A DNA stretch of 64,000 bases, from contig CAVSHF010000004.1 in assembly GCA_963727805.1 (NCBI GenBank), forward strand, positions 32,001 through 96,000, given 5' to 3'. The notes beneath the pieces are model-generated. The model was given only the letters and a program-made list of their open reading frames with translations. It was not told the origin of the DNA and ran no database searches. The DNA is from an uncultured Nitrospiraceae bacterium. GTDB lineage: Bacteria; Nitrospirota; Thermodesulfovibrionia; Thermodesulfovibrionales; Dissulfurispiraceae. The number at the start of each line of letters is the position of its first letter. The first letter of the stretch is position 1. Made by a program: the position numbers and the translations under genes. Shown here one piece after another: positions 43,986 through 64,000 of the stretch.

Positions 43986-44024
43986 CTTGAAATGCTTTTT
44001 TTTATTATTCTACTCTTTGCCTTT

Positions 44025-44095
44025 TGGGGAGTCGTACAATGGCAGTACGGCAGGCTCTGGATCTGCTTATAGGGGTTCGAATCCTCTCTCCCCAG
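44025..44095 (+). tRNA. tRNA-Gln(CTG)
   Basis: TGGGGAG/CTCCCCA acceptor stem, GCAGG-ctCTGga-TCTGC anticodon arm, GGTTCGAATCC. Confidence 0.95.
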
Positions 44096-44102
44096 TCACA
44101 AT

Positions 44103-44178
44103 GGTCCCATCGTCTAGAGGCCTAGGACATAGCCCTCTCAAGGCTAAGACACGGGTTCGACTCCCGTTGGGACTACCA
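44103..44178 (+). tRNA. tRNA-Glu(CTC), CCA encoded; island integration site
   Basis: GGTCCCA...TAGCC-ctCTCaa-GGCTA...GGTTCGACTCC...TGGGACTACCA. Confidence 0.96.
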
Positions 44179-44722: not shown

Positions 44723-44779
44723 AATGCCCTCTACTTCTCTATCTGGCAACCAATCAAATCAAGTTGTTTGTCCGTTTTC

Positions 44780-45502: not shown

Positions 45503-45609
45503 CAGTACCCCCCCAAATATGAGAAAATATATGGTATTGTACTGTACGATTAGACGCGTTATGAAACTAGACAAGATAATAACGTTCAGGCAGAAAAATT
45601 ATCTGCTGA

Positions 45610-48039: not shown

Positions 48040-48144
48040 GGTAATTTTGGGACAGATTAATATATTAACAAAATAAGGCATATTTACATATATTCAGATA
48101 ATAGGTATAATTAAATATAACGTAGGAAGGGCGGGTGATAACAA

Positions 48145-48390
48145 ATGGAAACAGTCATAGTTGGAGAAAGAGGGCAGGTGACAATCCCGAAGAAATTGAG
48201 GGATCGTTTCGGCATTAAATCAAAGTCTCCTGTTGTTTTTGAACTCAGGGAAGACGGGATTATGATCAAGCCGGCCATGACCGTAACGATACGGGAGTTC
48301 CCGGACGACTTTATAAGGGAGATCACTGAGGCGGATCAACTGAAATCTGCGGAAAGGAAGGATATTCTCTCTAGATGGAGAAAAAAATAA
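48145..48390 (+). CDS. AbrB/MazE/SpoVT-family antitoxin
   Basis: GERGQVTIPKKLR..FGI swapped-hairpin motif; overlaps the PIN gene. Confidence 0.88.
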   Translation: METVIVGERGQVTIPKKLRDRFGIKSKSPVVFELREDGIMIKPAMTVTIREFPDDFIREITEADQLKSAERKDILSRWRKK

Positions 48391-48803
48391 AGGTCTTTCT
48401 CGATAGTAATGTCCTGTTTTCGATCGCGTATACGGGCAAGGAGAAATCGCGTTCATACTTAATCTATGAGATCCAGGGTATGGGCATCATTCAAGTATGT
48501 CTTTCAAAGCTGGTCTGCGAGGAGACTTTGTCGAATATCAGAAGAAAGAAGCCTGATTCGGAAAGCCTTCTCAAAGAGCTGATCGAGAAATCGAAGATAT
48601 TGGGAGATATTGCCGCAGACCTGAAGCATGCGGAGATACGGAAACTCCCACAGAATGACCGGATTATTCTCACGACAGCTATCTATCATAAGGCAGACAT
48701 CTTTGTGACCGGAAATGAGAAGGATTTCAGAAAACTTTATCATAAGAGGGTTTTTAATACTATAGTGCTTAGACCGATCGATTTCCTTAATATGAACTTT
48801 TAA
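48375..48803 (+). CDS. PIN-domain (VapC-like) toxin
   Basis: VFLDSNVL, E, D..IL..A, FVTGN.KDF. Confidence 0.88.
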   Translation: MEKKIKVFLDSNVLFSIAYTGKEKSRSYLIYEIQGMGIIQVCLSKLVCEETLSNIRRKKPDSESLLKELIEKSKILGDIAADLKHAEIRKLPQNDRIILTTAIYHKADIFVTGNEKDFRKLYHKRVFNTIVLRPIDFLNMNF

Positions 48804-49324
48804 TCATTGTTTAAAGCGTATATACGCTACTTTATCTTTGTCCACTGCCCGTTTCTAAAACTGCTACTTACGGGAGACGCGATAATATGAAACACCGGCG
48901 AAATCCGCAGGCAAGGCAAAGGAACGTTAGTCGTGATGGATATCTAGCCTAAGTCGATGTCATAAAAACGTCATAAATTTAGCGGAAAACAAAGGAATCC
49001 AAGGGAATCCATAGGAAAACTCAAAACGCTGAAATGGCATTTAAAACAGTCTGTTATAATAAAATATGTAGGTATTTCAAGCCTGCTTAAAAAACCTATC
49101 TACGTACTCTCAACTCCACGACACTCAGATGATTAGACTGATCATGTGTTCGATGCACTGACCGGGTAGATCATTATTTTTAAGGCAGGCAGGAACCCTG
49201 AAAAAGCCTGTTAGCCCTACAATTTGGATCCGCTTGCGTGTCCCTTCCTGCATTAAGGTATACTTTGTTGACGGGTTGTTGAGGATGATTAATTTCGAAG
49301 TAGGTAAACGGGAGACTGTCAATT

Positions 49325-50677
49325 ATGAATAATGTTGGGAGAAATGATCCCTGCCCTTGTGGCAGTGGAAAGAAATACAAGAAATGTTGCCTTGCAGAAA
49401 CCTTTCTGCAAGTTGGCAAGGAAGACTCCATCCAAAAACAGCTTGTAGCGGAACTCCAGAACTTCTACAACAAGAATTATAAGGACACCGTTGAAGAAGC
49501 CCATGCAATGTTCTGGGATGACTTTATTCCACGAGAACACCTTGAAGGTCATGACCTTGATATCGCTTATCAAAACTTCTTTGAATGGATTACCTTTGAT
49601 TTCATTATAGATCCCGATACCGACAAGACTCTCGTAGACCTCTATATGGAGCGGAATAAGAGATTGTCACAAGACCAATATAAAATCCTGACTCTCATGA
49701 AGAACTCCGTCATAAGTCTATTTGAGGTCCAGGAGGTCTTTCCTGAGAAGGGACTGTTGCTGAAGGACTTACTGCTGGGTGGGGAATATGATGTAAAGGA
49801 AAAGTCTGCTACCCGGAGTCTTAAACGATACGATATTTTTGCTGCCCGGCTATTGCTGATTGATGGTCAATATATCATGAGCGGTTCAGTCTTCCCATAT
49901 AGCATCATGAGGAAAGAAAAGATTCTCGATGACATCATGAACGAGTTCCGAGAGTATCAAGAGGCATTGTCCGATGGCACTATGGATATGTTCCTGAAGG
50001 AGGCAGGTGATTTATTCAACTTCCACTGGTATTTTCCAATCCAATATCCACCGCCGCCGCTGAAACTGCATACCACAAGTGGAGAACCGGTGCTGATTTC
50101 CAGAGCGCTATTTGAGATTAAGGATCATGAGGCCGTCAAGATAGGGTTGCCCAAAATCAAGGGATTTGAACAAGACCACGATGGTTTTACTTGGTATGAC
50201 AAGAGGAAGCCGGATGGTAGTGCCACGATCCTTGGCACAATCGAGATCAAGGGTAATAAACTTACACTTGCATGCCATTCAAAGAAAAGACTTGACCGCG
50301 GCAAGAAACTTATTCTCGGGGCTCTATCCAATACCGTTGTCCACAAGTTAGACACATTTCAAGATCCGATGGAAGCCATTAAATCTCTCAAGGAACAAGC
50401 TCCCAATACCACCCCTGAGAATGACTTGCCGATGGAGATCCAGCAACGACTATATTATCAGTTCATGCAGAACCACTATGAGAAATGGTTTAGTGATAGA
50501 ATCCCAGTTCTTGATAACAAGACCCCGTTGGAGGCTGTTAAGACTGAAGCGGGAAAGCTAAAAGTTATAGAGTTACTTAAACTATATGAAAATGGAGAGG
50601 AACTGAATAAACGGGAATCCAGGCCTTATTATGACCTTGCTTGGGTTTGGCAACGACTTGGCATTGAAAAGGAATAG
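49325..50677 (+). CDS. SEC-C motif protein with C-terminal MbcA/ParS-like segment
   Basis: GRNDPCPCGSGKKYKKCC at the N-terminus; W....IP.LDNKTPLEA near the C-terminus. Confidence 0.75.
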   Translation: MNNVGRNDPCPCGSGKKYKKCCLAETFLQVGKEDSIQKQLVAELQNFYNKNYKDTVEEAHAMFWDDFIPREHLEGHDLDIAYQNFFEWITFDFIIDPDTDKTLVDLYMERNKRLSQDQYKILTLMKNSVISLFEVQEVFPEKGLLLKDLLLGGEYDVKEKSATRSLKRYDIFAARLLLIDGQYIMSGSVFPYSIMRKEKILDDIMNEFREYQEALSDGTMDMFLKEAGDLFNFHWYFPIQYPPPPLKLHTTSGEPVLISRALFEIKDHEAVKIGLPKIKGFEQDHDGFTWYDKRKPDGSATILGTIEIKGNKLTLACHSKKRLDRGKKLILGALSNTVVHKLDTFQDPMEAIKSLKEQAPNTTPENDLPMEIQQRLYYQFMQNHYEKWFSDRIPVLDNKTPLEAVKTEAGKLKVIELLKLYENGEELNKRESRPYYDLAWVWQRLGIEKE

Positions 50678-50808
50678 ATACAAGCCAGGGAAATGTATCA
50701 AAGGTGGCCGGGATTAATTGCTGGTCTTTTGTCCTCTTGACATGAGTTAACGTGCAGGTGAACATCTTAATGGGTGAAGGTCTTTGCTGAACACAAAAAA
50801 GCGGGATC

Positions 50809-51078
50809 TTATTTATAAACATCACCACGAGGCGCGATATTGACAATGGCTATGGTGAGAATCTCCGGCATTAACGCAAAGACGATCCGATAATCGCCAA
50901 CGCGAAGACGGTAAAGTCCCCTCAACTCGCCGGTCAACGGTTTTACATGGCGGTGTTCAATAGGTGAGTTGCATTCAGCCAACTCCTGGAGATCTTTTTT
51001 TATCCGCTTGCGAAGGTCCCTGTCGAGCCGGGTGAAATAGGCTTCAGCTTTGGACGATATCTTAATCGTCCAGGTCAT
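50809..51078 (-). CDS. RelE/ParE-family toxin
   Basis: KPLTG...GLYRLRVGDYRIVF ... RGDVYK. Confidence 0.9.
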   Translation of the reverse strand: MTWTIKISSKAEAYFTRLDRDLRKRIKKDLQELAECNSPIEHRHVKPLTGELRGLYRLRVGDYRIVFALMPEILTIAIVNIAPRGDVYK

Positions 51079-51301
51079 TTAAGATTTTCCCGCCACCAGC
51101 GTGGATTTCGGCTAGGCCCTCTTTGCACTCTTCTAGGAAGCCGGGTATGCCAAGCAGTTCTAGGGTCTCTTTGTGTCTACCAATATACTCATCGGTCAGT
51201 TCCGTATATATGTCGGAAAGCGATCTATTTTCGTAACCTGCGATAGCTCTGATGACCTTGAGGCGGTCATCAGGTAGTCTTAATGTCGTTGAGCCTTTCA
51301 T
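51062..51301 (-). CDS. Antitoxin (RHH-like) of the RelE pair
   Basis: TLRLPDD N-terminus, acidic C-terminus, ETLE.L; overlaps relE. Confidence 0.75.
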   Translation of the reverse strand: MKGSTTLRLPDDRLKVIRAIAGYENRSLSDIYTELTDEYIGRHKETLELLGIPGFLEECKEGLAEIHAGGGKILNDLDD

Positions 51302-51700
51302 TGTTTTTCACCAGTCCTTATAAGATACTTACTGTATTAATATTATAATACTATGATATTACAATATCAAGACACTCACATGTTATGGCAGTAAACTAAC
51401 AGGATCGATTACAGGGAACTACGTTGGAAGCTCTCCTTTTTCAGCAGTCCAGATCAAGATCTTGATTTGCACCGTTTTGCATGTGGGGGGCTGCCTGAGC
51501 GATTACTGGTCGGGCATGTGGGGTCCTTTTAAGTGTCAACACTTTTGTCAACATATATGAAAGAAATAGGCACTTTTTACCGGAAATAATGGTAAATAAG
51601 AGAAATGACAGAAATAACAGAAAGCTCAAAACACCCTGAAAACTAAAGTAAATCGCCCAAACCGTTGACAGACAATAGAATTAATAAAATGCTACTAACA

Positions 51701-52004
51701 CCCTCTCAAGGCTAAGACACGGGTTCGACTCCCGTTGGGACTACCAATAAAGCATTTTAGTTCACGGTTATATGGCCGGCAACCTACTGATCTATTTTAT
51801 TTTTCTCACTATCAAGTGTTAACACGTTTGTGCGCTTGAATAGTCCTGCAGCGTTGCCTTCGCAAGGCTAAGACACTGGTTCGCATCCATTTTGGATACG
51901 AAATAATATTGCAACAAAAACAAGGTGTTGCACCATCAACCATTTCTTTTTAAACGAATCATTATTAGCAACGTCATAAAAACGTAATAATGTCGAATCC
52001 CACA
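51701..52004 (+). repeat. Second copy of tRNA-Glu 3' half plus diverged ~260-bp tail (homologous to 44133-44437)
   Basis: Identical 46-bp core followed by alignable blocks (TCAAGTGTTAACAC, TGTGCGCTTGAATAGTC, GCAAGGCTAAGACACTGGTTC, GTCATAAAAACGT, TGTCGAATCCCACA). Confidence 0.9.
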
Positions 52005-52469: not shown

Positions 52470-53882
52470 CTACTTGCCGAATGGACACACTGGATAGCGG
52501 CATTCGGCGCAATGCAGGCAGAGACCTCCGTGACCCAATGCGGCGAGGTCATCGCGGCCTATGCGTTCTCCTGCAAGAACACGCGGCACGACTACGTCGA
52601 AGATGGTAGTTTTATGATACATGCCGCATGCGGGGATACCGATTATCGGTACGGAACGAGTTGTGGAAGTATCGTCCAAATAGGCAATCAGAAACATAGC
52701 ACCAGGCAATACTGCAGATCCATACGTAATATCCTTTGCGCCAAGCTGGCGTATCGCAAACCGTGTCACGTCATCGGGGTCTACCGACATCCCGCCCGTT
52801 GTTATAAGCATGTCAGCCCCTTGCGCTAGCAGATCCTTCAGTTTTTCTTCTATTATTTTTTCATCGTCGGGAGCATAATGAATGCCGACAATGGTGCCAC
52901 CAAGTTCCGCTATCTTTCGGGACATAATCGGTCCAAAGGCATCGGCAATCCGACCATGATAGACTTCATTACCGGTGATTACAATACCTGCTTTTGGCTG
53001 CCGCATTGGTAGAACTTCAACAGCTCGCGGCTGTCCATGCACCGCCTGGACCGCTTTTTCAACGATAGTTTTCTTGACTACAAGCGGAATTGCACGCGTG
53101 GCAGCGACCACTTGGCCTTCGCGTACAACCGTATTGCCATGCAAAGATGCACACATCACGTCGCCGAGACGGTTAAAACGACGGAGTGCCTCGGTGTTTA
53201 TTTTCAGGAGGCCTTTTTGGGAAGCAACTAGGTTCAGCTTGCCTTCCTTAGGTTCGTCAGGTACAGACACACCACTCCCTTTCAGAGCATCAGCAATGAG
53301 AGCAGCTGCCTCATCTTCGTGTATCTCATCCTCCTGAATCGAAAGCACAAAAAGATTCTCCTTGCCCAACCGTTGCAGATGTTCAATATCGTCAGGACGG
53401 ACTATATGACCCTTGCGAAACGCACGCCCCTTAAATTCATCTTTTCGGATTTCGGTAATATCATGGGCAAGCGCCATCCCGATAGCCGCACTCACCGGTA
53501 CCGTCATGCCATCGTTGCGACTGCATGCTAATTCAGAAACATTATTATCAGCCCCGCCGAATATTTTGCTGAAACGGTCGTCAACAAGTTCGTGGATGCC
53601 CTGCTCAAGCATGCGGTATTTCTTCAGAAACTGTTTAGCCTCTTCTGTCAGACAGGCTCCGCCACCGTCCTTGCCCCCTGTTTGACAATCGACGAGCGCG
53701 AATCCAAGCCGCTTCTCCATTGCTTTGATATAGCCCCATGCTTTTCGATAGGATATGTTAACTTCCTTTGCCGCCTGAGTGATCGAGCCGTGCTTGTCTA
53801 TGGACTCAAGCAGGAATCTTCGTCCTCTGCCAAATACCGGTTGTCCATCTACCTCTATCCAAAGCTTCGAACGTATCTCCAT
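52470..53882 (-). CDS. ModE-type HTH fused to molybdopterin-binding (MoeA/MogA-like) domain
   Basis: G.GR..LL..I...GSI..AA....SYRKAW; then HDITEI...FKG.AF.KGH, TGGMSVDPDD.T, LPG.M, GGLC..C..C.YP.CPFGK. Confidence 0.8.
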   Translation of the reverse strand: MEIRSKLWIEVDGQPVFGRGRRFLLESIDKHGSITQAAKEVNISYRKAWGYIKAMEKRLGFALVDCQTGGKDGGGACLTEEAKQFLKKYRMLEQGIHELVDDRFSKIFGGADNNVSELACSRNDGMTVPVSAAIGMALAHDITEIRKDEFKGRAFRKGHIVRPDDIEHLQRLGKENLFVLSIQEDEIHEDEAAALIADALKGSGVSVPDEPKEGKLNLVASQKGLLKINTEALRRFNRLGDVMCASLHGNTVVREGQVVAATRAIPLVVKKTIVEKAVQAVHGQPRAVEVLPMRQPKAGIVITGNEVYHGRIADAFGPIMSRKIAELGGTIVGIHYAPDDEKIIEEKLKDLLAQGADMLITTGGMSVDPDDVTRFAIRQLGAKDITYGSAVLPGAMFLIAYLDDTSTTRSVPIIGIPACGMYHKTTIFDVVVPRVLAGERIGRDDLAALGHGGLCLHCAECRYPVCPFGK

Positions 53883-53901
53883 AGTAATCCTTCCCTCATT
53901 C

Positions 53902-53924
53902 CGTTATGGATTTATTGCATAACG
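53902..53924. promoter_or_regulatory. ModE-box-like operator upstream of the modE fusion
   Basis: CGTTATG-N9-CATAACG perfect 7-bp inverted repeat resembling the CGTTAT...ATAACG ModE consensus. Confidence 0.65.
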
Positions 53925-53928
53925 CATG

Positions 53929-54567
53929 TCAAAAAATATCATCTTTCTGAGACTTATAATATCCACCTCCGGCACATACTCGGCATAAGACTTTCTCCCC
54001 TTTACAAACTTCCCGCATGTCCTGAATATACTCAGCACACAAATCGCATCTTACCCTTCCCAACGGCCTGCCGGGTATGTCCTCGGGCTTAAGGTCTATC
54101 TTCACATCCATAACATCAAAAAGCTCCCTGTCAGTCATGATTTTATATGCCTGAAGCTGGGCCTCGTACTTGTTTTTAATCTCAGGAAAATATTCCTTCG
54201 CCCTCTGCCTCGATTCCTCTTTTGCTATAACCCTCACGGCCTTGCCAGTCTTGAGGTTCAGAAATGTTGCCGCCATCTTACCGTAGTCCATGAACTTCAT
54301 AGTGCGATGGCCCAGGCTGCATCCAGTAACAGACTGAACCGCATCAGTAGCACAGCGGTCCATTTCAACAAAGACGATAATACTCTTTCTGTCCTTCCCC
54401 TTCGGATCTTCGATGCCTATCTCACGGAGCCCGAGAATGGACATCTTAACTCCCAGCACTTGGCCAGGGCAGAGGTGTCCATGGATCCTTGTCGACTCAG
54501 CGAGAAGAGATTCAAACCCTGAAGTCCGATCCAGCTCTTCGCTCTTATTCATTTTGTCATCTCTCAA
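53929..54567 (-). CDS. FmdE family protein
   Basis: HGHLCPGQVLG, E.DRC..DAVQ..TGC..G, DYGK.AATF, C-terminal C..C...C..C. Confidence 0.88.
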   Translation of the reverse strand: MRDDKMNKSEELDRTSGFESLLAESTRIHGHLCPGQVLGVKMSILGLREIGIEDPKGKDRKSIIVFVEMDRCATDAVQSVTGCSLGHRTMKFMDYGKMAATFLNLKTGKAVRVIAKEESRQRAKEYFPEIKNKYEAQLQAYKIMTDRELFDVMDVKIDLKPEDIPGRPLGRVRCDLCAEYIQDMREVCKGEKVLCRVCAGGGYYKSQKDDIF

Positions 54568-55153
54568 TCAGGTCGATCATAGACCGAGTCACTCTTGCCA
54601 ATGTTTTATAAAATGAGAGATCAGCTGCATCTTCCATGTCCAGTGCGAATTGCGGCGCCCACTTTAGAATATGATCAGAAAGAAACCCTTTTGCGAGGTC
54701 CCGATAGTATGGTTCTTTTCCGGGATCACTATTCGCCTTCTGAAGAACAACAGCGAGGAAGTTAAGCTCCGCCCCGATGTGATCCGCCATGATGCCCTGA
54801 TTGTTGACAGTCAACCCGGCTTTGCTGTAATAGTCCCTGACTTCGTCGTATGCTTCTTGCATCAGGAGTCTTTTCGGTGACGTATAAACGGACTCCCAAG
54901 GAGGACATGGCAACTTGTAAGGACCGATAAATAGTCTGGTGTATTCCCATAACAAATCTTCCAACTCACTGTCTGACGAGATGTCTATTTTATCCAAGGC
55001 ATTCTTCAAGTCTGACAGAATATCCGGGACTGCTTCTGATAACAAAGCTCTCCAGCTATCCAACGTCTCTCTATCTGGTTTGCATAGATACATGCTTCCC
55101 AAAAGCCCGCATGCGTCTATCAGCTCGCTATCCGTCATCGTAGCATTTTGCAT
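54557..55153 (-). CDS. TorD/DmsD-family molybdoenzyme chaperone
   Basis: EYTRLFIGP, PPWESVY, DHIGAELNFL. Start after GGAG RBS. Confidence 0.9.
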   Translation of the reverse strand: MQNATMTDSELIDACGLLGSMYLCKPDRETLDSWRALLSEAVPDILSDLKNALDKIDISSDSELEDLLWEYTRLFIGPYKLPCPPWESVYTSPKRLLMQEAYDEVRDYYSKAGLTVNNQGIMADHIGAELNFLAVVLQKANSDPGKEPYYRDLAKGFLSDHILKWAPQFALDMEDAADLSFYKTLARVTRSMIDLIER

Positions 55154-55227
55154 AATCCGAAACTCCTTAAAGGAACTTTTGTGCAGGGGCAACCCAGTGG
55201 TTACCCCTGCGGTCTCTGGTTAAAAGC

Positions 55228-55818
55228 CTACTTCTTTATATTCTTTGCCTCTACGAACCTTATTGACGGGATGGTCAGTTTTGGGTCGGCAAAATGCGGC
55301 AGCCGGTCCTGAATCTTGGTTTTAAAAACTGGATCTGGAAAGGCATTGCCAGCTTCGACATCGGGCATTTTGCCATTTGAAAGGGCATAGCCCATGCAGG
55401 TTCTGACACAGGCAGGTGGGAGACCAGCCTTCAATCTGTGTATGCAAAAATCACACTTGTCCACCTTCTTTTCCTTTTCATTAAATTGAGGGGCACCGTA
55501 AGGACAAGCCGCCATACAGCGCTTGCATCCGATGCATTTCTTCTTGTCATGAAGAACTACGCCGAATTCCTCTTCCTTGGAGTACGCTCCCACAGGGCAA
55601 GCTTTCAGGCACGATGGTTCCTCACAGTGATTGCAAGAAACCGAAATATATCTCACTTCCGGATTAGGATACTTTCCCGCTTCCTGGATAATGACCCTCC
55701 TTCGTCTAATGCCGACGGGGAGGTCGAATTCCTGCTTGCAGCCGGACTCGCAACCCCGGCAAGCGATGCAATTATTTTCATTGTAAAGCCATGTCATCTG
55801 TTTAGGGTTCTTTGCCAT
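55228..55818 (-). CDS. 4x[4Fe-4S] electron-transfer subunit (DmsB/PsrB-like)
   Basis: CIACRGCESGC, CNHC..P.C...CP, CIGCKRCMAACP, CDFC...P.C...C. Confidence 0.92.
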   Translation of the reverse strand: MAKNPKQMTWLYNENNCIACRGCESGCKQEFDLPVGIRRRRVIIQEAGKYPNPEVRYISVSCNHCEEPSCLKACPVGAYSKEEEFGVVLHDKKKCIGCKRCMAACPYGAPQFNEKEKKVDKCDFCIHRLKAGLPPACVRTCMGYALSNGKMPDVEAGNAFPDPVFKTKIQDRLPHFADPKLTIPSIRFVEAKNIKK

Positions 55819-55829
55819 TTGTCCCTCCT

Positions 55830-58160
55830 CTACGCCCTTGTTACCTTAACGCCGATTTCTTTGTGGACAGCCATGCCTGAAGTTTTCTCAGACACACCAG
55901 CAAGGAATTGTCCATCTCCGGTGCCTTCGGGAGACCACCTGTTAATCTTGTTCATTGAACCTCTTGCGATCTTCCCGAACCCCCAATGTCCAAATCCATG
56001 ATGAAGAGCCACTACCTCCGGATGGATCCTCTCCGTTACCTGAACTGACCCCTTTGCCTTTGCATAAGGGGACTCTATCCATATAGGGTCTCCGTCCTTA
56101 AGTCCAAGCCTAGCAGCTGTGGCGGTATTCATGAGAAGAGGATTATCAGGCTTCATCTCCATCAGCCAGTCGTTGTTAAACGTCCTTGAATGGGTGTGTT
56201 CGGCCTGCTTATAGTTGACTAGATAGAGAGGAAACTCAGGGGTCGGATTGTATATAGGCTCAACATAGTCAGGCAATGGATTTAGTCCCTTCTTCGCCAT
56301 CTGTTCAGAATAGAACTCTATCTTCTTCGACGGAGTTGCAAAGCCTTTTTCTTTATACTTTTCATAATGGGTCTCGCCACCGATGAACACGGCTCCAGGA
56401 AGAGCCAACATTTCATCCAGGGTCTTTCCTATGGGTCCGTTTTTGAGCTGATCGGACATGTATTCCGGATAAGTATCAGGCAGGGTCTTGCCGTCCTTGT
56501 CCTTCAGTCCCATCTTTTTTGCCAGGGCGAGGATGAACTCCTGTTCAGTCATCCCGTTTATTACCGACTTGACCGCAGGCTGCCTTATTGACGTCGCGGG
56601 GAAGGTAACCCAGTTTCCATGTATCTCCCATCTCTCCAGGTAGTGACTGCCCGGTATCACGATATCAGCAAGCTCTGCTAGCTCGCTCATCATCGTATCC
56701 AGAACGACAACGTAATCGAGTTTCTTGACCGCCTCGATGTTCTTCTTCGTATTGGGGACAGACATAATAAAGTTTTGGAACATAAATACGCCTGCTCTGA
56801 GCTGGTAAGGTTGCCCTGAAATCATGGCATCCCTTGTCTCGGTGTATATCCCAGACGAATGAGCGAAGGGATACTTTGTACCTAGACCATCAATCCTAGC
56901 TGCCTTAGGTTTGTCCACGTCAAATGCCCTGCGCTTGCCCCCCTTTGCCTCTCTGCTTATCATTGTGCCGGGTTTATCGTACTGCCCCAAGAGAGCAGGC
57001 AACATTGCAATGGCTCTTCCGCCATCGGTTGCATTGGTGTGGTGCCCGGGGCCGCTCCATGTGTCGATGGCAGCGGGTTTTGTGGATGCAAGCTCTTTTG
57101 CTATCCTTCTAGTTGTTTCGGCTGGTACCGAGGTGATCTTCTCGGCCCATTCCGGGGTTTTATCTTTCACAAGCTCCGCATACTTATCGAAGCCGACTGT
57201 ATAATTATTTATAAACTCTTGGTCATGCCAGCCATTTTTAACTATCTCATGCCCCAGCGCGAGAGCAAATGCTCCGTCGGTGCCCGGTCTGATGGGAACC
57301 CATTCATCAGCCTTTGCGGCTGTCTGGTTATAGAAGGGATCGACATAGACCATCTTTGCGCCTTTAGCTTTCCCCCAATTCCAGATTCCCGGAAGGTGCG
57401 CCCACTTTGTAGCCGCAAGCATATTCCAGCCGAATACAAGGGCATACTTAGTATTGGCGAAATCGGGGAGTGGTCTGTCATCGCCCATCACCAGCTTAAA
57501 GGAGGCCTTTCTTGCGACATCGCAGGTATTGGAATGCATCGAGTAGTTTGGAGAGCCATACAGGAGGTTGAAGTCCGCTTGCATGTCGGTGAATGAGGAA
57601 TCCTCAGTGCACCAGAACATCGTCTCGGGTCCATATTTCTCTCGGATGTCTAATAGGTTTCTTGAAACGTCATCGAGGGCCTCCTCCCACGAAATGGCTT
57701 TCCACTTGCCAGATTCTCTCGGTCCCACTCTCTTCATAGGTGTTTTCAGCCTGTCGGGATCGTAAAGCGCTCTCGCCCCGGCATTACCCTTTGCGCAGAT
57801 CCTTCCGCCAAGAGTCTTTTTCTGTTCGTAATCTGTCGAGATATTGGCCACACCTATGGGGTTGAATTCGCTTGGTTCTATCTTAACGACTCTGCCATCT
57901 ACAACATGGACTTTTATCCCAGATGTCCCGCCGCACATATGGCATGTCGTATATATCCACTTGCCTTTCCCTGCCATTTTCTCCTCTGCCGATGCCTCCC
58001 TGAAAAGACCGAGTTTGTCATCCCACAGAAGGCCGCTCGCAATGGCTGCACCTGCAAGGGCTGACGACCATTTAAGGAAGGACCGCCTGCTAAATTCTTG
58101 TCCTGTCGTTTTTTCGAAAATGTCTTTTTCGTCTTCGGTGATCATTCTGTTTTCGCTCAT
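55830..58160 (-). CDS. Tat-exported DMSO-reductase-family molybdoenzyme catalytic subunit (Cys-ligated, PsrA/PhsA/SrrA/ArrA/AnrA-like group)
   Basis: SRRSFLK Tat motif, CHMC...C FS0 site, YDPDRLKTP, GSPN...HSNTC, IRPGTD, ADIV.P...YLE, C-terminal Mo-binding domain. Start after AAGGAGG RBS. Confidence 0.9.
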   Translation of the reverse strand: MSENRMITEDEKDIFEKTTGQEFSRRSFLKWSSALAGAAIASGLLWDDKLGLFREASAEEKMAGKGKWIYTTCHMCGGTSGIKVHVVDGRVVKIEPSEFNPIGVANISTDYEQKKTLGGRICAKGNAGARALYDPDRLKTPMKRVGPRESGKWKAISWEEALDDVSRNLLDIREKYGPETMFWCTEDSSFTDMQADFNLLYGSPNYSMHSNTCDVARKASFKLVMGDDRPLPDFANTKYALVFGWNMLAATKWAHLPGIWNWGKAKGAKMVYVDPFYNQTAAKADEWVPIRPGTDGAFALALGHEIVKNGWHDQEFINNYTVGFDKYAELVKDKTPEWAEKITSVPAETTRRIAKELASTKPAAIDTWSGPGHHTNATDGGRAIAMLPALLGQYDKPGTMISREAKGGKRRAFDVDKPKAARIDGLGTKYPFAHSSGIYTETRDAMISGQPYQLRAGVFMFQNFIMSVPNTKKNIEAVKKLDYVVVLDTMMSELAELADIVIPGSHYLERWEIHGNWVTFPATSIRQPAVKSVINGMTEQEFILALAKKMGLKDKDGKTLPDTYPEYMSDQLKNGPIGKTLDEMLALPGAVFIGGETHYEKYKEKGFATPSKKIEFYSEQMAKKGLNPLPDYVEPIYNPTPEFPLYLVNYKQAEHTHSRTFNNDWLMEMKPDNPLLMNTATAARLGLKDGDPIWIESPYAKAKGSVQVTERIHPEVVALHHGFGHWGFGKIARGSMNKINRWSPEGTGDGQFLAGVSEKTSGMAVHKEIGVKVTRA

Positions 58161-58170
58161 TCGATCCTCC

Positions 58171-58524
58171 TTACTTTGCAAATAAATTCCACGCGCCATT
58201 CACACCGCCGCTGTGGCAACCAGCACAGACTTGAGGGTCAACCTCTTTCCTTAATGAGGCCGCTGAACTGTCCCTCAGATCGACAGATTGATGACAGTCT
58301 GTACACAGCTTCGGCGTTGCGAGTTTCGATTCGAGGTGGACCCGGTGAAACATCTTATACTTTTTGTTGAGCGACACTTCCTTCAGGACACTTGCATGAC
58401 AGTTCAAACATTCCTTGTTGCTGAGTTTGGCTGCGTTCTTATGGAGGTCTACAAGGTTCTGCTCCAACGCAACCGCGCTCGTGGAAAACATCAGCACCAG
58501 ACAAATAACCAAGGCATTCCGCAT
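58171..58524 (-). CDS. Small periplasmic triheme cytochrome c
   Basis: Sec signal (AVA) and three CxxCH motifs: CLNCH, CTDCH, CAGCH. Confidence 0.85.
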   Translation of the reverse strand: MRNALVICLVLMFSTSAVALEQNLVDLHKNAAKLSNKECLNCHASVLKEVSLNKKYKMFHRVHLESKLATPKLCTDCHQSVDLRDSSAASLRKEVDPQVCAGCHSGGVNGAWNLFAK

Positions 58525-58802
58525 GATTTCCTCCTTTTATATATTGCTATTCTGCACTGACTCTGTGCTCCAATGCTTTGACCTGCCTCCATGCATAAGT
58601 GAGTAATCTTAGCGATATTAACACATATACTTTAGTATATGCGTTGAATACGTGTTGAATAGGAGTCAGCTCACTTGCCGTATGTCTCAGCTCAGGGCAT
58701 TTTCATCCTTTTCCCCTGTTATCAATTAATAATATACAGATTATTTTGGTATAGTTAAATATATGAAAGATTATACGATAATTCATGGAGGTTCGCAAAG
58801 AC

Positions 58803-59153
58803 ATGAAGAATATGATAGATGTCTTTAAGTCACTGACTGATGAGACCAGGCTCAGGATACTGAAACTCCTGGAAAACGGAGAACTCTGCGTTTGCGAGAT
58901 TGTTGCCGCTGTGAATGTTGTGCAGCCCCAGGTGTCTTTCCATCTCCGTACATTGAAACACGCCGGACTGGTCAAGGATAGCAAACATGGCAAATGGACA
59001 CATTACCGCCTCGACGATTCAGATATATTTAAAAGGTTTCTTTTGATGGGCGTACTGGAAAGGGTAGAGGGTGATAAGATCCTGAAAGATAGATCAAGAC
59101 TCGAAAAATTCCGCCAGGGCAAGGATGTTGCGGCTGCCTGTGGCAAGTGTTGA
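58803..59153 (+). CDS. arsR: ArsR/SmtB repressor
   Basis: FKSL.DETRLRI, ELCVCE, VSFHL..LK.AGLV; C-terminal CGKC. Confidence 0.9.
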   Translation: MKNMIDVFKSLTDETRLRILKLLENGELCVCEIVAAVNVVQPQVSFHLRTLKHAGLVKDSKHGKWTHYRLDDSDIFKRFLLMGVLERVEGDKILKDRSRLEKFRQGKDVAAACGKC

Positions 59154-59304: not shown

Positions 59305-59775
59305 ATGGATAAGAAACGTGTGTTGTTCGTATGCATTCACAATAGTGCAAGGAGTCAGATGGCACAAGCTTTTCTGAACTTGATAGCCGGGGATCGTTTT
59401 GTGGCTGAGAGCGCAGGTCTCGAAGCCGGTACATTAAATCCCATTGCAGTAGAAGCGATGGCTGAAGTGGGCATTGATATATCAGGCAATACCACCCGGA
59501 GAGCGTTTGATTTGCTTAAAAGCGGCAAGCGTTTCCAATACGTTATTACCGTTTGCGATGCGGCAAATGCACAGAAGTGTCCTGTGTTCCCCGGCGCGCT
59601 ACAGCACATAAACTGGAGTTTCCCCGATCCTGCTCAATTGCAGGGTACTCACGAAGAGAAAATGACGGAAGTCAGAAAGATTCGTGATGCTATTAAAGCA
59701 AAAATAGAGTCTTGGGTCTCCGATAAGAGAGAGCGCACCGGGGTTGAGATTCCACCTTTCAAAGTCGGGTTATAA
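59305..59775 (+). CDS. arsC: Thioredoxin-type (LMW-PTP fold) arsenate reductase
   Basis: [20 protein letters not shown]....CPVFP, W.F.DP. Confidence 0.88.
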
Positions 59776-59889
59776 TCTCCTCGAAAAGCCTTAGCATCTT
59801 CTTTTTTAGCGAGTCCTGTATCACTCTTGATATTCGCTTATAGACTGTCCAGATTTTTCTGATTGCAGTACAAACAGCCCATTCCCTAC

Positions 59890-59918
59890 TTGACATCATA
59901 TAAAATTTAGTTTATGTT
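59890..59918 (+). promoter_or_regulatory. Sigma-70 promoter with overlapping ArsR-type operator
   Basis: TTGACA-N17-TATGTT; ATAAA-N6-TTTAT palindrome at 59900-59915. Confidence 0.65.
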
Positions 59919-59939
59919 TAAATTAGGGGAAGGGAAAGA

Positions 59940-60887
59940 ATGCTAAAACAATTTGCCGACTATGTTACCTATGCCTTGCTGAAGCTGGAGCCTGCCAGTC
60001 ATGTCGGAGATGCGCTAAACTTCTTTATATACGATACCATAAAGATATTCTTATTGCTCACCACGATAGTTTTTGTCGTAGCGGTCATCCGTGCGTACTT
60101 CTCGCCAGAGAAGACCAAAAGAATACTAACGCATAAAAAAGAAATTATAGGTAATATACTTGCCGCCCTGCTTGGCATCGTCACTCCTTTCTGCTCATGC
60201 TCGGCAGTCCCTCTCTTCATCGGGTTCGTAGAGGCAGGAGTGCCACTTGGGGTCACTTTTTCATTTCTCATCTCTTCTCCCATGGTCAACGAAGTGGCGC
60301 TGATAATGTTATGGGGGCTTTTCGGATGGAAGATTGCTATGATTTACGCTGGAGCGGGTGTTGTCCTAGCGATTCTCTCCGGCATAGTCATCGGCAAGCT
60401 AAGGATGGAAAAGTACGTTCAAAATTACGTTTGGGAGATGCAGGTGGGTGAAATGGAGGTCACGGAAACCGGCTTCCGCGACAAGCTTGTGTATGCCCGT
60501 GGCTATACAGCAGACCTGCTAAAAAAACTCTGGCCCTATGTTGTTATAGGTATTGGCTTGGGAGCTGCCGTGCACGGGTACATACCGGCAGACTTTATCG
60601 TTAAATATGCTGGGCCGGATAATCCTATAGCGGTACTGGTTGCAGTTTTGATCGGCATACCGCTTTATAGCAATGCCGCCGGCATGATTCCAGTTGTTCA
60701 GGCGCTCGTGGGAAAAGGTATGGCCATGGGTACGGTGCTGGCATTCATGATGTCGGTCACTGCAATTTCATTCCCGGAGGCTGTAATACTGAAGAACGTA
60801 TTGAAGCTGCCTCTTATCGTCACCTTTTTTAGCATAGTTGCGGTAGGAATCGTCATTGTCGGATATCTGTTTAATGCCATTTTGTGA
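59940..60887 (+). CDS. arsP: ArsP (DUF318) permease
   Basis: FFIYD..KI, TPFCSCS..P, FL.SSP..NE, G.PLYSN..G..P, FMM.V...S.PE. Confidence 0.85.
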   Translation: MLKQFADYVTYALLKLEPASHVGDALNFFIYDTIKIFLLLTTIVFVVAVIRAYFSPEKTKRILTHKKEIIGNILAALLGIVTPFCSCSAVPLFIGFVEAGVPLGVTFSFLISSPMVNEVALIMLWGLFGWKIAMIYAGAGVVLAILSGIVIGKLRMEKYVQNYVWEMQVGEMEVTETGFRDKLVYARGYTADLLKKLWPYVVIGIGLGAAVHGYIPADFIVKYAGPDNPIAVLVAVLIGIPLYSNAAGMIPVVQALVGKGMAMGTVLAFMMSVTAISFPEAVILKNVLKLPLIVTFFSIVAVGIVIVGYLFNAIL

Positions 60888-60926
60888 AGATCCTTGGTCT
60901 TCCGATTTCAACACCAGGAGGAATAT

Positions 60927-61277
60927 ATGTCAGAGTGTGCATGCGGCGGAAATACCTATATTTTTTCATGTTCAGGCGCGGCAGACGTAGGGGCTCTATC
61001 TGATCGGATAGCCAGAAAATTGTCAAAGGATGGAAAGGGGAAAATGTATTGCATGGCTGCGGTGGGGGCGAACATCCCTGAAAAGATAGCACCGCTGAAA
61101 GCGGCCTTAGGTGCTGTTACCATCGACGGATGCTCCTCTTTATGTGCAAAAAAGGTGCTGGAAAATGCCGGCTTCAAACCCGTCTCTTATAACTTGGAGG
61201 ATTTCGGTTTTAAGAAGGGCAAAACAGATGTGAATGATGCAGCGATAGATCTTGCAATCGGAAAGTTAGGACTATAA
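60927..61277 (+). CDS. DGC-domain putative zinc-binding protein
   Basis: CSG...G..D..AR.L, C, IDGC...CA. Start after AGGAGG. Confidence 0.8.
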   Translation: MSECACGGNTYIFSCSGAADVGALSDRIARKLSKDGKGKMYCMAAVGANIPEKIAPLKAALGAVTIDGCSSLCAKKVLENAGFKPVSYNLEDFGFKKGKTDVNDAAIDLAIGKLGL

Positions 61278-61304
61278 TTCGAGGAAGAGAAGGGAGCGTA
61301 GGCA

Positions 61305-61544
61305 ATGGAGATTAAAGTATTGGGTCCAGGCTGTGCTAACTGCCACAAGATGGAGGCGTTGGTGAAACAGGCTATCAAAGAGTTGGGCATTGACGCCAAA
61401 ATAGAAAAGGTGAGCGATATCCGCGATATAATGAAATATACAATGTCTACGCCCGGGTTCGTGGTGAACGGTAAGCTCAAACATTTTGGCAAACCTTTAC
61501 CAAGCCTCGATAAGGTTAAAGAGCTTATCAAATCGGAGGCATAA
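61305..61544 (+). CDS. Small thioredoxin-like redox-active disulfide protein
   Basis: IKVLGPGCANC ... STPG.VVNG. Confidence 0.88.
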   Translation: MEIKVLGPGCANCHKMEALVKQAIKELGIDAKIEKVSDIRDIMKYTMSTPGFVVNGKLKHFGKPLPSLDKVKELIKSEA

Positions 61545-61548
61545 TCTG

Positions 61549-61938
61549 ATGCAGGAGATTCTTAACATTTTCAAGGCCCTCTCCGATGAAACGCGGTTGA
61601 GGATATTGAAGCTCCTCGAACATGGAGAATTATGCGTCTGCGACCTATTTTCAGCCCTCGAAATGGTCCAGCCAAAGGTCTCTTTTCACTTGTCTGTTCT
61701 CAAAGACGCTGGATTGATAACGGATAGAAAAGAAGGGCGCTGGGTTCACTATCGCCTCGATGATAAGGACATACTAAGAAGGTTTATGTTGCTTACCGTC
61801 ATGGAGAGGGTTTCCGAAGATGTCATTAAAGATGATAGAGCGCGTCTCACGGCTTTTCTGGAAAGTAAGCAGGAAGCTAATAATAATGAAAAGACGACGA
61901 CAACGCCTATTAAGAAAAGTAAATGCTGCGGGAGGTAA
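61549..61938 (+). CDS. arsR: Second ArsR/SmtB repressor
   Basis: FKALSDETRLRI, ELCVCD, VSFHL; C-terminal CC. Confidence 0.9.
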   Translation: MQEILNIFKALSDETRLRILKLLEHGELCVCDLFSALEMVQPKVSFHLSVLKDAGLITDRKEGRWVHYRLDDKDILRRFMLLTVMERVSEDVIKDDRARLTAFLESKQEANNNEKTTTTPIKKSKCCGR

Positions 61939-61947
61939 TACAATCAA

Positions 61948-63027
61948 ATGAGCACCGTCACTAAGCGTCTCTCCTTTCTCGACCGCTATCTAACACTCTG
62001 GATATTTGCCGCGATGCTCCTGGGTGTTGGTCTTGGCTATTTTGTGCCGCAAGTAGAGGGTTTAATCAACAGTTTTCAGGTAGGTACTACCAACATTCCC
62101 ATTGCTATCGGCCTCATTCTCATGATGTATCCGCCCCTCGCAAAGGTGAAGTATGAAGAGCTGGGTGAGGTCTTCAAAAATAAAAAAGTTTTGGGACTTT
62201 CCCTAATTCAAAACTGGGTGATCGGGCCGATACTTATGTTTCTGCTGGCAATTATTTTTCTTCAGGATTATCCGGAATATATGGTAGGCCTCATTATGAT
62301 CGGGCTGGCGCGCTGTATTGCCATGGTCATTGTCTGGAACGACCTGGCGTGCGGAGATCCGGAGTACGCAGCCGGATTGGTCGCCTTCAATTCGATATTT
62401 CAGGTGCTCTTCTTCTCGGTCTATGCCTACATATTCATAACAATCCTGCCTGCGTGGTTCGGACTCAAAGGTGCGGTTGTGCATGTCACAATCGGCCAGA
62501 TCGCCGAAAGTGTATTTATCTATCTGGGGATTCCTTTTCTGGCTGGAATGTTGACCCGGTTCAGCTTGCTCAAAATTAAGAGCCGCCAATGGTACGAACA
62601 CGAATTCATACCGAGAGTAAGCCCTCTTACTCTTGTCTTCCTGCTATTTACTATAGTTGTGATGTTTTCCCTGAAGGGAAATTATATAGTCAGGTTGCCA
62701 ATGGATGTAGTGCACATTGCAATACCCTTACTGATCTATTTTGTAGTAATGTTTCTTGTTTCGTTCTACCTCGGCAGAAAGATAGGAGCAGATTATGCCA
62801 AGACCGCTACGCTTTCGTTCACTGCTGCGAGCAATAATTTCGAACTGGCCATAGCCGTTGCCGTAGCTGTTTTCGGGATAAACTCTGGCGCTGCCTTTGC
62901 TGCAGTCATCGGCCCTCTTGTGGAAGTGCCGGCCTTAATCGGCTTGGTAAACGTTGCACTCTATTTTCAGAGAAAATATTTTTCGGACAAATACTGCAAG
63001 GTGGCTGAGGTAAAACCTCATTTGTAA
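61948..63027 (+). CDS. acr3: Acr3 arsenite efflux permease
   Basis: [45 protein letters not shown]. Confidence 0.95.
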
Positions 63028-63062
63028 TATGTAACACGGTGAATATCGGAAAGGAATACCGC

Positions 63063-63752
63063 ATGCTCAAGATCGATCCTGCACCAGATTATCCGACCGA
63101 AGAAGGCCGATACCTCAGAGGGAACGACTATTCTCCAGTGGCCGTCGCTGTTATCCTGATCTATGACAGCGATAAAATCCCAAAGGACATCGAAATGCTT
63201 GTGAGGACCGGGGTCGAAGCGGGGGCCGCGCTTTCCGGCACAATACAGACCGAAAACATCGGCGTCGAAAAGATGGTCTGCAATATCATTGGTAATCCCA
63301 ATATCCGGTATCTCGTACTGACCGGCCCTGAATCTCCCGGTCATTCGACCGGCGAAGCCATAATGTCACTGCTTAAAGATGGTGTCGATGAGCGCAAGAG
63401 GATCAGGAACACCGGTGCGCCTACACCTTATCTATTCAATCTTCCAATAGAATATATCGAGCGATTCAGAAAACAAATTATTTCCGTAGTCGATCTACTT
63501 AACCGTGGAACTCCCGATCTCGTAAGAAAGGCTGTCTGGTCCTGCTACCAGGAAACCCCAACGGAGTTTGAGGAGCATATGTTGTACGATATCGGCGCGT
63601 ATCCTGAAACGCCGATAAGTGCCGTCCTCACATGGAGGGTTACTAATCCTGCTTTTGAACCAAAGGATGAACAGGAGCGAAAGCAGAAAGATGATTTTGC
63701 AAAGAAGATGGAGGAGATCAGAAAAAAAGTTCAGGAGAAACACAGAACATGA
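63063..63752 (+). CDS. Soluble MtrA-like (tetrahydromethanopterin S-methyltransferase subunit A) corrinoid-binding protein
   Basis: G.Y..G...SPVAV, EAGAA.SG...TEN.G.EK...N...NPNIR.L.L.G.E..GH.TG, GVD....I, P...N.P...IERF.KQ; no C-terminal TM anchor. Confidence 0.85.
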   Translation: MLKIDPAPDYPTEEGRYLRGNDYSPVAVAVILIYDSDKIPKDIEMLVRTGVEAGAALSGTIQTENIGVEKMVCNIIGNPNIRYLVLTGPESPGHSTGEAIMSLLKDGVDERKRIRNTGAPTPYLFNLPIEYIERFRKQIISVVDLLNRGTPDLVRKAVWSCYQETPTEFEEHMLYDIGAYPETPISAVLTWRVTNPAFEPKDEQERKQKDDFAKKMEEIRKKVQEKHRT

Positions 63753-63776: not shown

Positions 63777-64000
63777 GTGAAACTTGTTAAGGTTTTTATA
63801 TTGATTGGCTTTCTGGTCTTTTCATATGGCACCGGCTGGGCGGCCGATTTCGATGCGTTGCTAACAAAAGCAAAGATAGAGAAAAAAGTCGTAATGCTGG
63901 AGCTCGGATCAGTTGGTTGCGTTCCCTGTGATCAGATGAGACCGGTGATGGACAAGCTCACGCAGAACTATAAAGGCAAGCTCGAAGTCATCTTCGTGGA
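63777..64000 (+). CDS. Exported thioredoxin-family protein (runs off the window)
   Basis: GTG after GGAGG; signal peptide; MLELGS.GCVPC..M.PV. Confidence 0.8.
   Translation, partial: MKLVKVFILIGFLVFSYGTGWAADFDALLTKAKIEKKVVMLELGSVGCVPCDQMRPVMDKLTQNYKGKLEVIFV

Follow-up and report, generated by a model that had tools for sequence, protein, structure and literature searches.

The arsenate reductase ArrAB of Shewanella is soluble and has no anchor gene, an anchor-less layout thus being not unusual for arsenate reductases, and the arr genes stand head-to-head with an ars operon. Also without an anchor is FdhABC3 of Desulfovibrio, a molybdo- or tungsto-enzyme whose A and B subunits are exported by twin-arginine translocation (Tat) and linked to the periplasmic cytochrome pool by a small multihaem c3-type cytochrome. 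The marker genes arrA, arxA and aioA are used to track arsenic mobilisation in wetlands, paddy soils and aquifers. Here we analyse a 64,000-nucleotide (nt) stretch of DNA from an uncultured Nitrospiraceae bacterium (the window; positions 32,001 to 96,000 of contig CAVSHF010000004.1, called C4 below, with C3 and C5 denoting other contigs of the same 3.89 Mb genome). Six minus-strand open reading frames (ORFs) at 52470-58524, in which neighbours overlap or lie apart by no more than 46 nt, encode a three-haem cytochrome c, a molybdoenzyme catalytic subunit (A), an electron-transfer subunit (B), a TorD-type chaperone, an FmdE-family protein and a ModE/MoCF fusion protein, and this Mo operon stands head-to-head with an ars cluster (Table 1).

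Based on comparisons of sequence, predicted fold and gene neighbourhood, we tentatively propose, at somewhat less than even confidence, that A, B and the cytochrome may form a periplasmic reductase of arsenate, or of a close arsenic or antimony analogue, to arsenite, with electrons supplied via the cytochrome. The proposal builds on ArrX-type sensors, apparent control by ArsR, haems that look low in potential, a layout like that of soluble ArrAB and an apparent replacement of ArrA in the sampled genomes. The original prediction, made from the nucleotide sequence of the window, had called the system a metalloid reductase fed by a soluble cytochrome; the metalloid link, to arsenic, is borne out by the gene neighbourhoods, while the direction of the reaction and the route of the electrons stay at the level of inference.

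The catalytic subunit and its clade

Subunit A belongs to the dimethyl sulfoxide (DMSO) reductase superfamily of Mo/W-bis(pyranopterin guanine dinucleotide) (Mo/W-bisPGD) enzymes, as seen from its Pfam domains (Molybdopterin 133.9, Molydop_binding 68.2 and Molybdop_Fe4S4 34.8 bits, all above cut-offs, plus TAT_signal) and from its fold, with a Foldseek probability of 1.00 to both the Thermus polysulfide reductase PsrA (2vpw) and Shewanella ArrA (6cz7). These two are also the closest solved structures by sequence (E 1e-86 and 4e-62, respectively), and the AlphaFold2 model of A (pLDDT 83.4, pTM 0.82) matches them about equally (TMq 0.79 for PsrA, 0.80-0.81 for ArrA). The family is widespread yet fails all curated models tried: A reaches 444.4 bits on the PhsA model NF012032 (cut-off 694), 312 on the DmsA/YnfE model (cut-off 778), 234.7 on the ArrA model NF041714 (cut-off 1600) and 122 on the TtrA model (cut-off 1750). 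True PhsA representatives score 998 and 1058 bits on the PhsA model, and full-length ArrA-lineage proteins from Geobacterales and the host's own class about 1000-1160 bits on the ArrA model. In a library of representatives at 50% identity, ten clusters lie above 450 bits (38-54% identity), followed by a plateau at or below 385 bits that contains two proteins passing the PhsA cut-off, as found among the 62 of 150 representatives scanned. No NCBIfam match at E<=1e-140 was obtained for any of the ten close clusters; their named members are all proteins of metagenome-assembled genomes (MAGs) with generic names, and many family members bear the JGI label 'thiosulfate reductase/polysulfide reductase chain A'.

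Phylogenies were calculated with FastTree (173 rows) and with IQ-TREE under LG+C20 PMSF (44 rows), both rooted on Geobacterales ArrA-lineage proteins and built without Wolinella and Thermus PsrA, SrrA, ArxA, TtrA and AnrA. The family is monophyletic in each (28 and 15 rows, respectively), with support 100 and a stem of 0.45-0.46, and branches apart from the clade holding curated PhsA, which is the nearest named clade in both. Being under the PhsA cut-off and forming a separate clade in both trees distinguishes the enzyme from PhsA orthologues. Subunit A is hence a member of a separate unnamed clade in the PsrA/PhsA-ArrA part of the DMSO reductase superfamily, known only from metagenomes. A literature search found no paper describing the family, including as a Psr/Phs-like arsenic enzyme or under 'novel arsenate reductase'. 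NaoABC, an Sb(III) oxidase, was set aside as a counterpart, being NapA-like and having a Rieske subunit.

Relatives of the operon were compared at 93 loci, 13 from genomes (82-94% identity) and 80 from metagenomes, scanned by tblastn with two of insufficient A match excluded; the loci are not independent, several being near-identical. We call close those with A at least 75% identical and distant those at 55-66%, and for counts of flanking genes at least 3 kb of extra flank was needed (30 close and 31 distant loci). The MAG labels of the 13 genome loci are Nitrospirae/Nitrospiraceae, Dissulfurispiraceae, NC10, Deltaproteobacteria, Geobacteraceae and Alphaproteobacteria. The order cytochrome-A-B-TorD is near-invariant: the cytochrome gene immediately precedes A in 36/36 close and 37/38 distant loci, B follows A in 32/33 and 36/36, and TorD follows B in 27/28 and 33/34. 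FmdE is present in 10/30 close and 12/31 distant loci and a ModE/MoCF homologue in 9/30 and 9/31; the fusion protein of the window scores 87.7 bits on NCBIfam ModE_repress, under the cut-off of 98.5. Subunit A carries the Tat motif SRRSFLKW in its translation, and as database homologues begin 13 codons inside the ORF, at an internal Met, its start is placed at 58160. Subunit B has 16 Cys that are invariant in an alignment of 19 sequences, enough for four [4Fe-4S] clusters, and neither a signal peptide nor a transmembrane segment was found in it. Two loci show further arrangements: in L078 (11.4 kb) two opposed A-B-TorD copies surround a MoaA gene, and L003 holds a second, unrelated Mo enzyme of 856 amino acids (aa) with its own TorD, FmdE and MoCF genes.

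The gene set, its single strand and its head-to-head position to the ars cluster had been described in the original prediction, with which coordinates and Pfam matches agree, and the three-haem cytochrome, the Tat catalytic subunit and the strings HSNTC and FWCTEDSSF are all present in the translations. Its statement that the locus has no NrfD/PsrC anchor likewise holds: PF03916 has no match on contig C4, its five matches in the genome all lying on C3 and C5. At the 61 loci flanked by 3 kb or more, tblastn gave no match to four NrfD proteins of the same genome, and clustering of flank ORFs returned no recurrent membrane protein of the NrfD/PsrC/PhsC kind. Seven relatives (L091:4196-5104; L067, L084, L093, L094, L098 and L099) encode, just before the cytochrome gene and in its orientation, a cytoplasmic protein of 302 aa that is rich in Cys and has weak likeness to reductive dehalogenase/QueG-type iron-sulfur (FeS) proteins (RDH, E 1e-5), which is absent from the window and was ruled out as a membrane anchor for want of a transmembrane segment.

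The absence of an anchor bears on one alternative, an ordinary sulfur-compound reductase (for polysulfide, thiosulfate or tetrathionate) whose association with ars genes would reflect no more than shared carriage on islands. PhsA being the best curated model, the Thermus polysulfide reductase the best solved structure, the JGI labels naming such an enzyme and the hosts cycling sulfur all speak for this assignment. Even so we judge it very unlikely, as A stays under the cut-off that true PhsA proteins clear, its clade is separate (SH-aLRT, the approximate likelihood ratio test, 100; stem 0.45), 0 of the 61 counted loci has a PsrC/PhsC anchor, and the same genome encodes a separate PhsA-clade enzyme at C3:1309k. 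In addition, arsenic-type sensor genes stand directly upstream on the same strand in relatives, and an ArsR-linked palindrome is located in the operon's own promoter region.

Arsenic genes, regulation and the cytochrome

Genes for arsenic handling recur around the family. In the loci defined above, ars genes lie alongside in 16/30 close and 6/31 distant cases, a three-gene module termed X-S-R in 5/30 and 8/31, and one or the other in 20/30 and 13/31. In L004, L005, L006 and L010 this module is positioned directly upstream on the same strand and comprises, by Pfam, a Phosphonate-bd periplasmic protein (X), a Cache/HAMP histidine kinase and a sigma-54 response regulator. Eight loci encode an additional X protein of a single domain, and some of these had already been counted via kinase or regulator genes. 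In L006 the X-S-R set is present twice, the second time with a further FeS protein behind it. The X proteins are closer to ArrX than to AioX, with 173 vs 141 bits in L004 (ArrX 6x6b, E 7e-50) and 131 vs 64 bits in L126 (E 7e-37). The sections of Badilla 2018 (PMC5908839) that deal with these sensors report that ArrX has a dissociation constant of 1 uM for arsenate but does not bind arsenite, and that the ligand of any given X protein is its enzyme's substrate. The window itself has no X-S-R module, with ArsR instead.

Genes for CcdA with thioredoxin, for molybdate transport, for molybdenum cofactor biosynthesis and for ArsM also recur nearby; ArsM reaches 302 bits in L123, above the curated cut-off of 263. 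In the window, the thioredoxin gene that runs past its end (whole gene L139:777-1154, in coordinates of a locus on C4 that extends beyond the window) is followed by a DsbD_TM/CcdA gene at L139:1159-1848, and such a pair adjoins ars genes in 8-11 related loci too. A gene for an MtrA-like protein (corrinoid-binding methyltransferase subunit A) stands directly after acr3 in the window and in L002, L011, L059, L061, L062, L064 and L068, and may be connected with arsenic methylation or demethylation.

The synteny survey thus supports the link to metalloid genes that had been proposed from the window, with ars genes or ArrX-like sensors in many loci of several phyla. Because they recur across phyla, the metalloid link is stronger than one neighbourhood could make it, and the arsenic link is well supported.

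The same neighbourhoods count, in part, towards a respiratory antimonate reductase that would be an orthologue or analogue of AnrA, as ArsR/Acr3 systems also respond to and export Sb(III), and Sb(OH)6-, an all-hydroxyl anion, could be bound by carboxylates. On the other hand, ArsC is of thioredoxin type and the sensors are ArrX-like, both of which point to arsenic, and metagenomes of peat, fen and lake sediment commonly contain the family (519 relatives confirmed in a metagenome scan), settings in which arsenic is the more common metalloid. The part of PMC13284237 that concerns the occurrence of AnrA reports it from Desulfuribacillus and Geobacter sp. SVR; at E<=1e-120 the present family occurs in only 2 of 239 Geobacterales genomes, both MAGs, and if SVR is among those sampled, its AnrA is not a member. 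Arsenic fits the gene context better than antimony, and we regard an antimonate reductase as very unlikely.

Regulation by arsenic is suggested also within the window. Between arsR and the cytochrome gene lies a spacer of 260 nt with a 12-2-12 inverted repeat, AACACATATACT-tt-AGTATATGCGTT, that is unique in the window, with 0 chance matches expected. Repeats of 12-2-12 type are typical of ArsR/SmtB operators, and each of the two ArsR proteins encoded nearby carries ELCVC, the motif of the As(III) site, together with a Cys pair at the C-terminus. The core of the repeat (at most two mismatches) recurs 119-148 nt upstream of the cytochrome gene in 10/74 loci, all of them from the 92-96% group in which ArsR1 is encoded or has left a remnant: they are seven of the ten loci with a divergent arsR directly upstream and three further ones that keep an arsR remnant. 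It is absent from all X-S-R loci. In an alignment of the spacers, the repeat and a related site beside the arsR start form conserved islands amid diverged sequence with insertions and deletions. The palindrome is a candidate ArsR operator, and the operon appears to be under ArsR control. In the three remnant loci (L001, L063 and L136) the palindrome and the apparent first ~10 codons of a divergent arsR are retained, and acr3 and a TauE-like gene lie upstream on the operon's strand. A strict sigma-54 promoter pattern was found upstream of the cytochrome gene in only 4/74 loci, two of them without X-S-R, and sigma-70 and terminator scans performed no better than on shuffled sequences.

The cytochrome is a constant component of the operon: 73 of the 74 loci with room upstream encode it. 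It has a Sec-type signal (…SAVA/LE) and belongs to the cytochrome c7/c3-like family PF14522, with 27.6 bits vs a cut-off of 24.8, three CXXCH motifs and three further His; no sequence relative was found in the PDB at E<0.1. Exactly three CXXCH motifs occur in 80 of 81 homologues, and the extra His residues are kept nearly throughout (H28 80/81, H60 76/81, H63 81/81), while the sole Met is kept in 18/81. This conservation of the His and not of the Met suggests three bis-His haems of low potential that would donate electrons. Synteny suggests that the cytochrome may bind A-B.

Active site, distribution and the proposed reaction

In alignments, the Cys of HSNTC (within HSNTCDVARK) falls on the Mo-ligand Cys of both Thermus PsrA and ArrA, so that the ligand named in the original prediction is confirmed at the level of alignment. 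His209, Cys213 and Lys218 are spaced as residues 189, 193 and 198 of ArrA (HSNTCDVARK vs HSSVCAEAHK), a pattern that is partly common to PhsA and therefore does not discriminate for ArrA/ArxA. Numbering of these ArrA residues and the definition of the (R/K)GRY motif (residues 163-166) follow the part of PMC13685797 that describes them. The predicted absence of (R/K)GRY and of the ArxA GRGWG signature also stands, the aligned segment reading FWCTEDSSF: RGRY of ArrA aligns with C-T-E-D, within a family signature W-x-x-E-D-x-S-F, and no ArxA xGRGWG occurs in the aligned segment. E186, D187 and R229, the latter opposite Tyr210 of ArrA, are invariant in 17 diverse members. Deep family members P0130 (Methanosarcinaceae MAG proteins, archaeal, 797 aa) and P0132 lack the Mo-ligand Cys, with YNQNSDSARK and SSNIKNAGKK in its place. 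In the FS0 motif, CHMCGGTS...C, C73, C76 and C122 are invariant and the third Cys position (S80) is Ser; members of the close and 831-aa groups have Ser or Thr here, and only the basal P0127, P0129, P0131 and P0132 have Cys.

The altered FS0 motif brings in a reaction of opposite direction, namely an anaerobic oxidase of arsenite (or antimonite) that passes electrons to the small cytochrome, as Aio does to soluble cytochromes. An anchor-less A-B pair with a soluble cytochrome is a periplasmic dehydrogenase layout, and Ser or Thr at the third FS0 Cys in the family core would fit a modified, possibly higher-potential cluster, as in AioA. Neutral As(OH)3 might donate hydrogen bonds to acidic residues, As(III) is the signal to which ArsR responds, and both a NapA-like gene and a haem-copper oxidase are present in the host. 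We nevertheless consider arsenite oxidation unlikely, since the sensors are more like ArrX, for arsenate, than AioX, for arsenite; since three conserved distal His and no conserved Met point to low-potential haems, poor acceptors for the As(V)/As(III) couple; and since the hosts are mostly strict anaerobes of peat and sediment.

The distribution of the family was compared with that of ArrA. It is present in 19/301 sampled genomes of the host's class (17/248 of high quality), in 2/4 other genomes of the host's genus and in 5/53 of the host's family. An ArrA-lineage gene is found in 40/301 of the same genomes (about 530-1160 bits, most near 1000-1160 and none above 1600) and in 25/151 sampled Geobacterales genomes, and no ArrA above the curated cut-off was detected in the genome of the window or in the host genomes of five relatives (G001-G005). 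The family appears to replace ArrA in the sampled genomes. The two occur together in 0/301 genomes, with about 2.5 expected. That this non-co-occurrence is not significant (hypergeometric P = 0.06, related genomes not being independent) is the first of several points that weigh against arsenate reduction.

Second, the clade is nearer by sequence to sulfur-compound reductases (PhsA 444 bits, PsrA E 1e-86) than to ArrA (235 bits, E 4e-62). Third, the arsenate-contacting Arg165-Tyr166 of ArrA correspond to the invariant Glu186-Asp187, a charge reversal that argues against anion binding as in ArrA. In addition, about a third of close and more than half of distant loci have no arsenic gene within the available flanks. 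No RNA run was among the sequencing runs found to contain the stretch. The host's NapA-like gene and its one haem-copper oxidase are compatible with arsenite oxidation; as dsrA (above cut-off), the NapA-like gene and the haem-copper oxidase are all present, host physiology does not settle the direction. Finally, Arr and Arx enzymes are reversible in vitro according to the portion of PMC13685797 on their activity, and sequence therefore cannot fix the direction of the reaction. The Glu-Asp pair leaves room for other readings, as do the changed FS0 motif and an ancestry on the PhsA side.

One such reading draws on just this ancestry: a PhsA-derived reductase of thioarsenate or organoarsenicals, which would split the S-As bond of monothioarsenate to yield arsenite and sulfide, or reduce methylated As(V). 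The nearest named clade in both trees holds curated PhsA, the hosts are sulfur-cycling anaerobes (with dsrA in the genome itself and the closest loci from Dissulfurispiraceae/Nitrospirae MAGs), ArsP, the MtrA-like protein and ArsM recur nearby, and Glu-Asp in place of Arg-Tyr suggests a substrate bound unlike arsenate. Moreover, strain MLMS-1 grows by monothioarsenate disproportionation, as cited in a passage of PMC5607362 that does not name the enzyme. Speaking against it, the ArrX-like sensors are closest to an arsenate binder, and the literature search found no paper tying a Psr/Phs-type enzyme to thioarsenate. We hold such a reductase to be unlikely. Its narrower form, a thioarsenate reductase descended from thiosulfate reductase and converting monothioarsenate (S-AsO3, the arsenic twin of thiosulfate, S-SO3) to arsenite and sulfide, we rate slightly lower still; if true, Nitrospirota and Desulfobacterota that cycle sulfur in peat, paddy and lake sediments would have an enzyme for thioarsenate respiration or disproportionation, a process for which none is named in the literature searched.

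For arsenate reduction, the reaction we tentatively favour, the following sequence of events is conceivable. As(III) would release ArsR and derepress the operon through the 12-2-12 palindrome. A and B would fold in the cytoplasm, helped by TorD, FmdE and the ModE/MoCF protein, and be exported jointly by the Tat system. The predicted low-potential bis-His cytochrome would be reduced by the periplasmic cytochrome pool, or by a quinol dehydrogenase in the membrane whose genes lie elsewhere, and pass the electrons on via the four clusters of B and FS0 to the Mo, where Mo(IV) would take an oxygen atom off arsenate. The arsenite produced could then be handled by the adjacent Acr3, ArsP and ArsC. If the family indeed reduces arsenate, it would represent a further independent lineage of dissimilatory arsenate reductases, beside ArrA and the TtrA-like archaeal enzyme, and present surveys would therefore undercount arsenic-respiring anaerobes. 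As a compact soluble three-component system (cytochrome, FeS subunit and Mo subunit) on a mobile island, it is also practical to express and assay.

Genomic setting and comparison with known systems

The first 44 kb of the window contain housekeeping genes, and a protoglobin domain fused to a PsiE (phosphate-starvation-inducible) membrane domain (299 aa) is encoded there at 8488-9387 on the minus strand. A tRNA-Gln and tRNA-Glu pair follows at 44024-44178, and the 3' end of tRNA-Glu is found in three copies, each followed by ~300 nt of common sequence in the alignment. The first interval contains a TOTE primase-helicase gene and PIN, SEC-C and ParE genes, and the second, of 14.65 kb, the Mo operon and the ars cluster. 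A second TOTE module, 84% identical to the first over 3.46 kb, starts at the third copy. The two modules (window 44103-52000 and L139:3400-7900, i.e. C4:98400-102900) thereby flank the Mo/ars island, each starting at a tRNA-Glu 3' copy and each comprising a gene on the opposite strand (264 and 284 aa) and an archaeo-eukaryotic primase (AEP) primase-helicase (809 and 802 aa) of this conflict system. The arrangement suggests that related islands were inserted in tandem at a single tRNA gene; a search of contig C4 for a tyrosine integrase (PF00589) found none. Elsewhere in the genome, a second acr3-arsC pair (C3:93907-95538), 93% and 80% identical to the copies of the window and without a Mo operon beside it, adjoins a weak integrase-family match (C3:91959-92390). 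Three further genes for Mo/W enzymes (C3:768815-770791, 497328-499355 and 1810323-1813289) have one in-frame TGA each and are likely selenocysteine-containing subunits of formate dehydrogenase type.

Table 1 Features of the Mo operon, the ars cluster and the surrounding island, in window coordinates unless stated otherwise
Feature	Position	Strand	Basis or remark
Intact tRNA-Glu (CTC)	44103..44178	+	ARAGORN; 3' 44 nt = 44135-44178
Exact copy of tRNA-Glu 3' end, left boundary of Mo/ars island	51703..51746	+	Pattern search, 0 mismatches, 0 expected by chance
ModE-type helix-turn-helix + MoCF_biosynth (molybdopterin-binding) fusion, 470 aa	52470..53882	-	Last operon gene; Pfam HTH_1 36.9 bits, MoCF_biosynth 83.2 bits
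FmdE-family protein, 212 aa	53929..54567	-	Pfam FmdE 121.7 bits
TorD/DmsD-type maturation chaperone, 211 aa	54557..55192	-	Pfam Nitrate_red_del 108.3 bits
Electron-transfer subunit B, 196 aa	55228..55818	-	Pfam Fer4_11 94.7 bits
Catalytic subunit A, 776 aa	55830..58160	-	ORF open back to 58199 (789 aa); Pfam, NCBIfam, alignments, AlphaFold2
Small periplasmic cytochrome c, 117 aa, three CXXCH	58171..58524	-	Pfam Cytochrome_C7 27.6 bits, cut-off 24.8
12-2-12 inverted repeat, arsR/cytochrome spacer	58620..58645	.	Candidate ArsR operator of Mo operon
ArsR/SmtB regulator, divergent from Mo operon	58785..59153	+	ELCVCE motif, C-terminal CGKC; Pfam, NCBIfam
ars cluster, whole	59305..63752	+	Pfam, NCBIfam
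ArsC, low-molecular-weight phosphatase (LMWP)/thioredoxin type	59305-59775	+	
ArsP permease	59940-60887	+	
DGC-domain protein	60894-61277	+	
Second ArsR	61486-61938	+	
Acr3	61948-63027	+	TIGR00832, 465 bits vs cut-off 283
MtrA-like corrinoid-type protein	63039-63752	+	
Thioredoxin gene start	63777..64000	+	Continues past window end
Right boundary copy of tRNA-Glu 3' end	L139:3400-3443 = C4:98400-98443		One mismatch; 2.4 kb past window end

Among described enzymes, the best matches in sequence and fold are PsrABC (Thermus thermophilus, 2vpw) and PhsABC (Salmonella, and a plasmid copy in E. coli SE11, L056), which likewise have a Tat-exported A subunit with a Cys-ligated Mo-bisPGD and a four-cluster B subunit, PhsA being ~30% identical to subunit A. 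They differ in having the membrane subunit PsrC/PhsC, which the operon of the window lacks, a gene for the three-haem cytochrome standing in front instead; further distinctions of the window enzyme are Ser at the third FS0 Cys, the WxxEDxSF signature and regulators of arsenic type. AnrA (Desulfuribacillus stibiiarsenatis and Geobacter sp. SVR) is similar by description, as a DMSO reductase-family enzyme for a group-15 oxyanion in organisms that also have ars genes, according to the parts of PMC12183865 and PMC13284237 that portray it.

ArrAB of Shewanella sp. ANA-3 (6cz7) shares the soluble periplasmic A-B pair and the equivalents of His189, Cys193 and Lys198, and is as good a fold match as PsrA. 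However, ArrA is 24% identical to subunit A, its RGRY is replaced by x-x-E-D and its Tyr210 by the invariant Arg229, and the operon of the window, unlike ArrAB, encodes its own cytochrome. The ArrXSR system of Chrysiogenes arsenatis has its counterpart in relatives of the operon, with an ArrX-like sensor, a kinase and a sigma-54 regulator. FdhABC3, finally, offers an analogy in layout only, as it belongs to another catalytic clade, acts on another substrate and has a four-haem c3 cytochrome where the operon described here encodes a three-haem protein.

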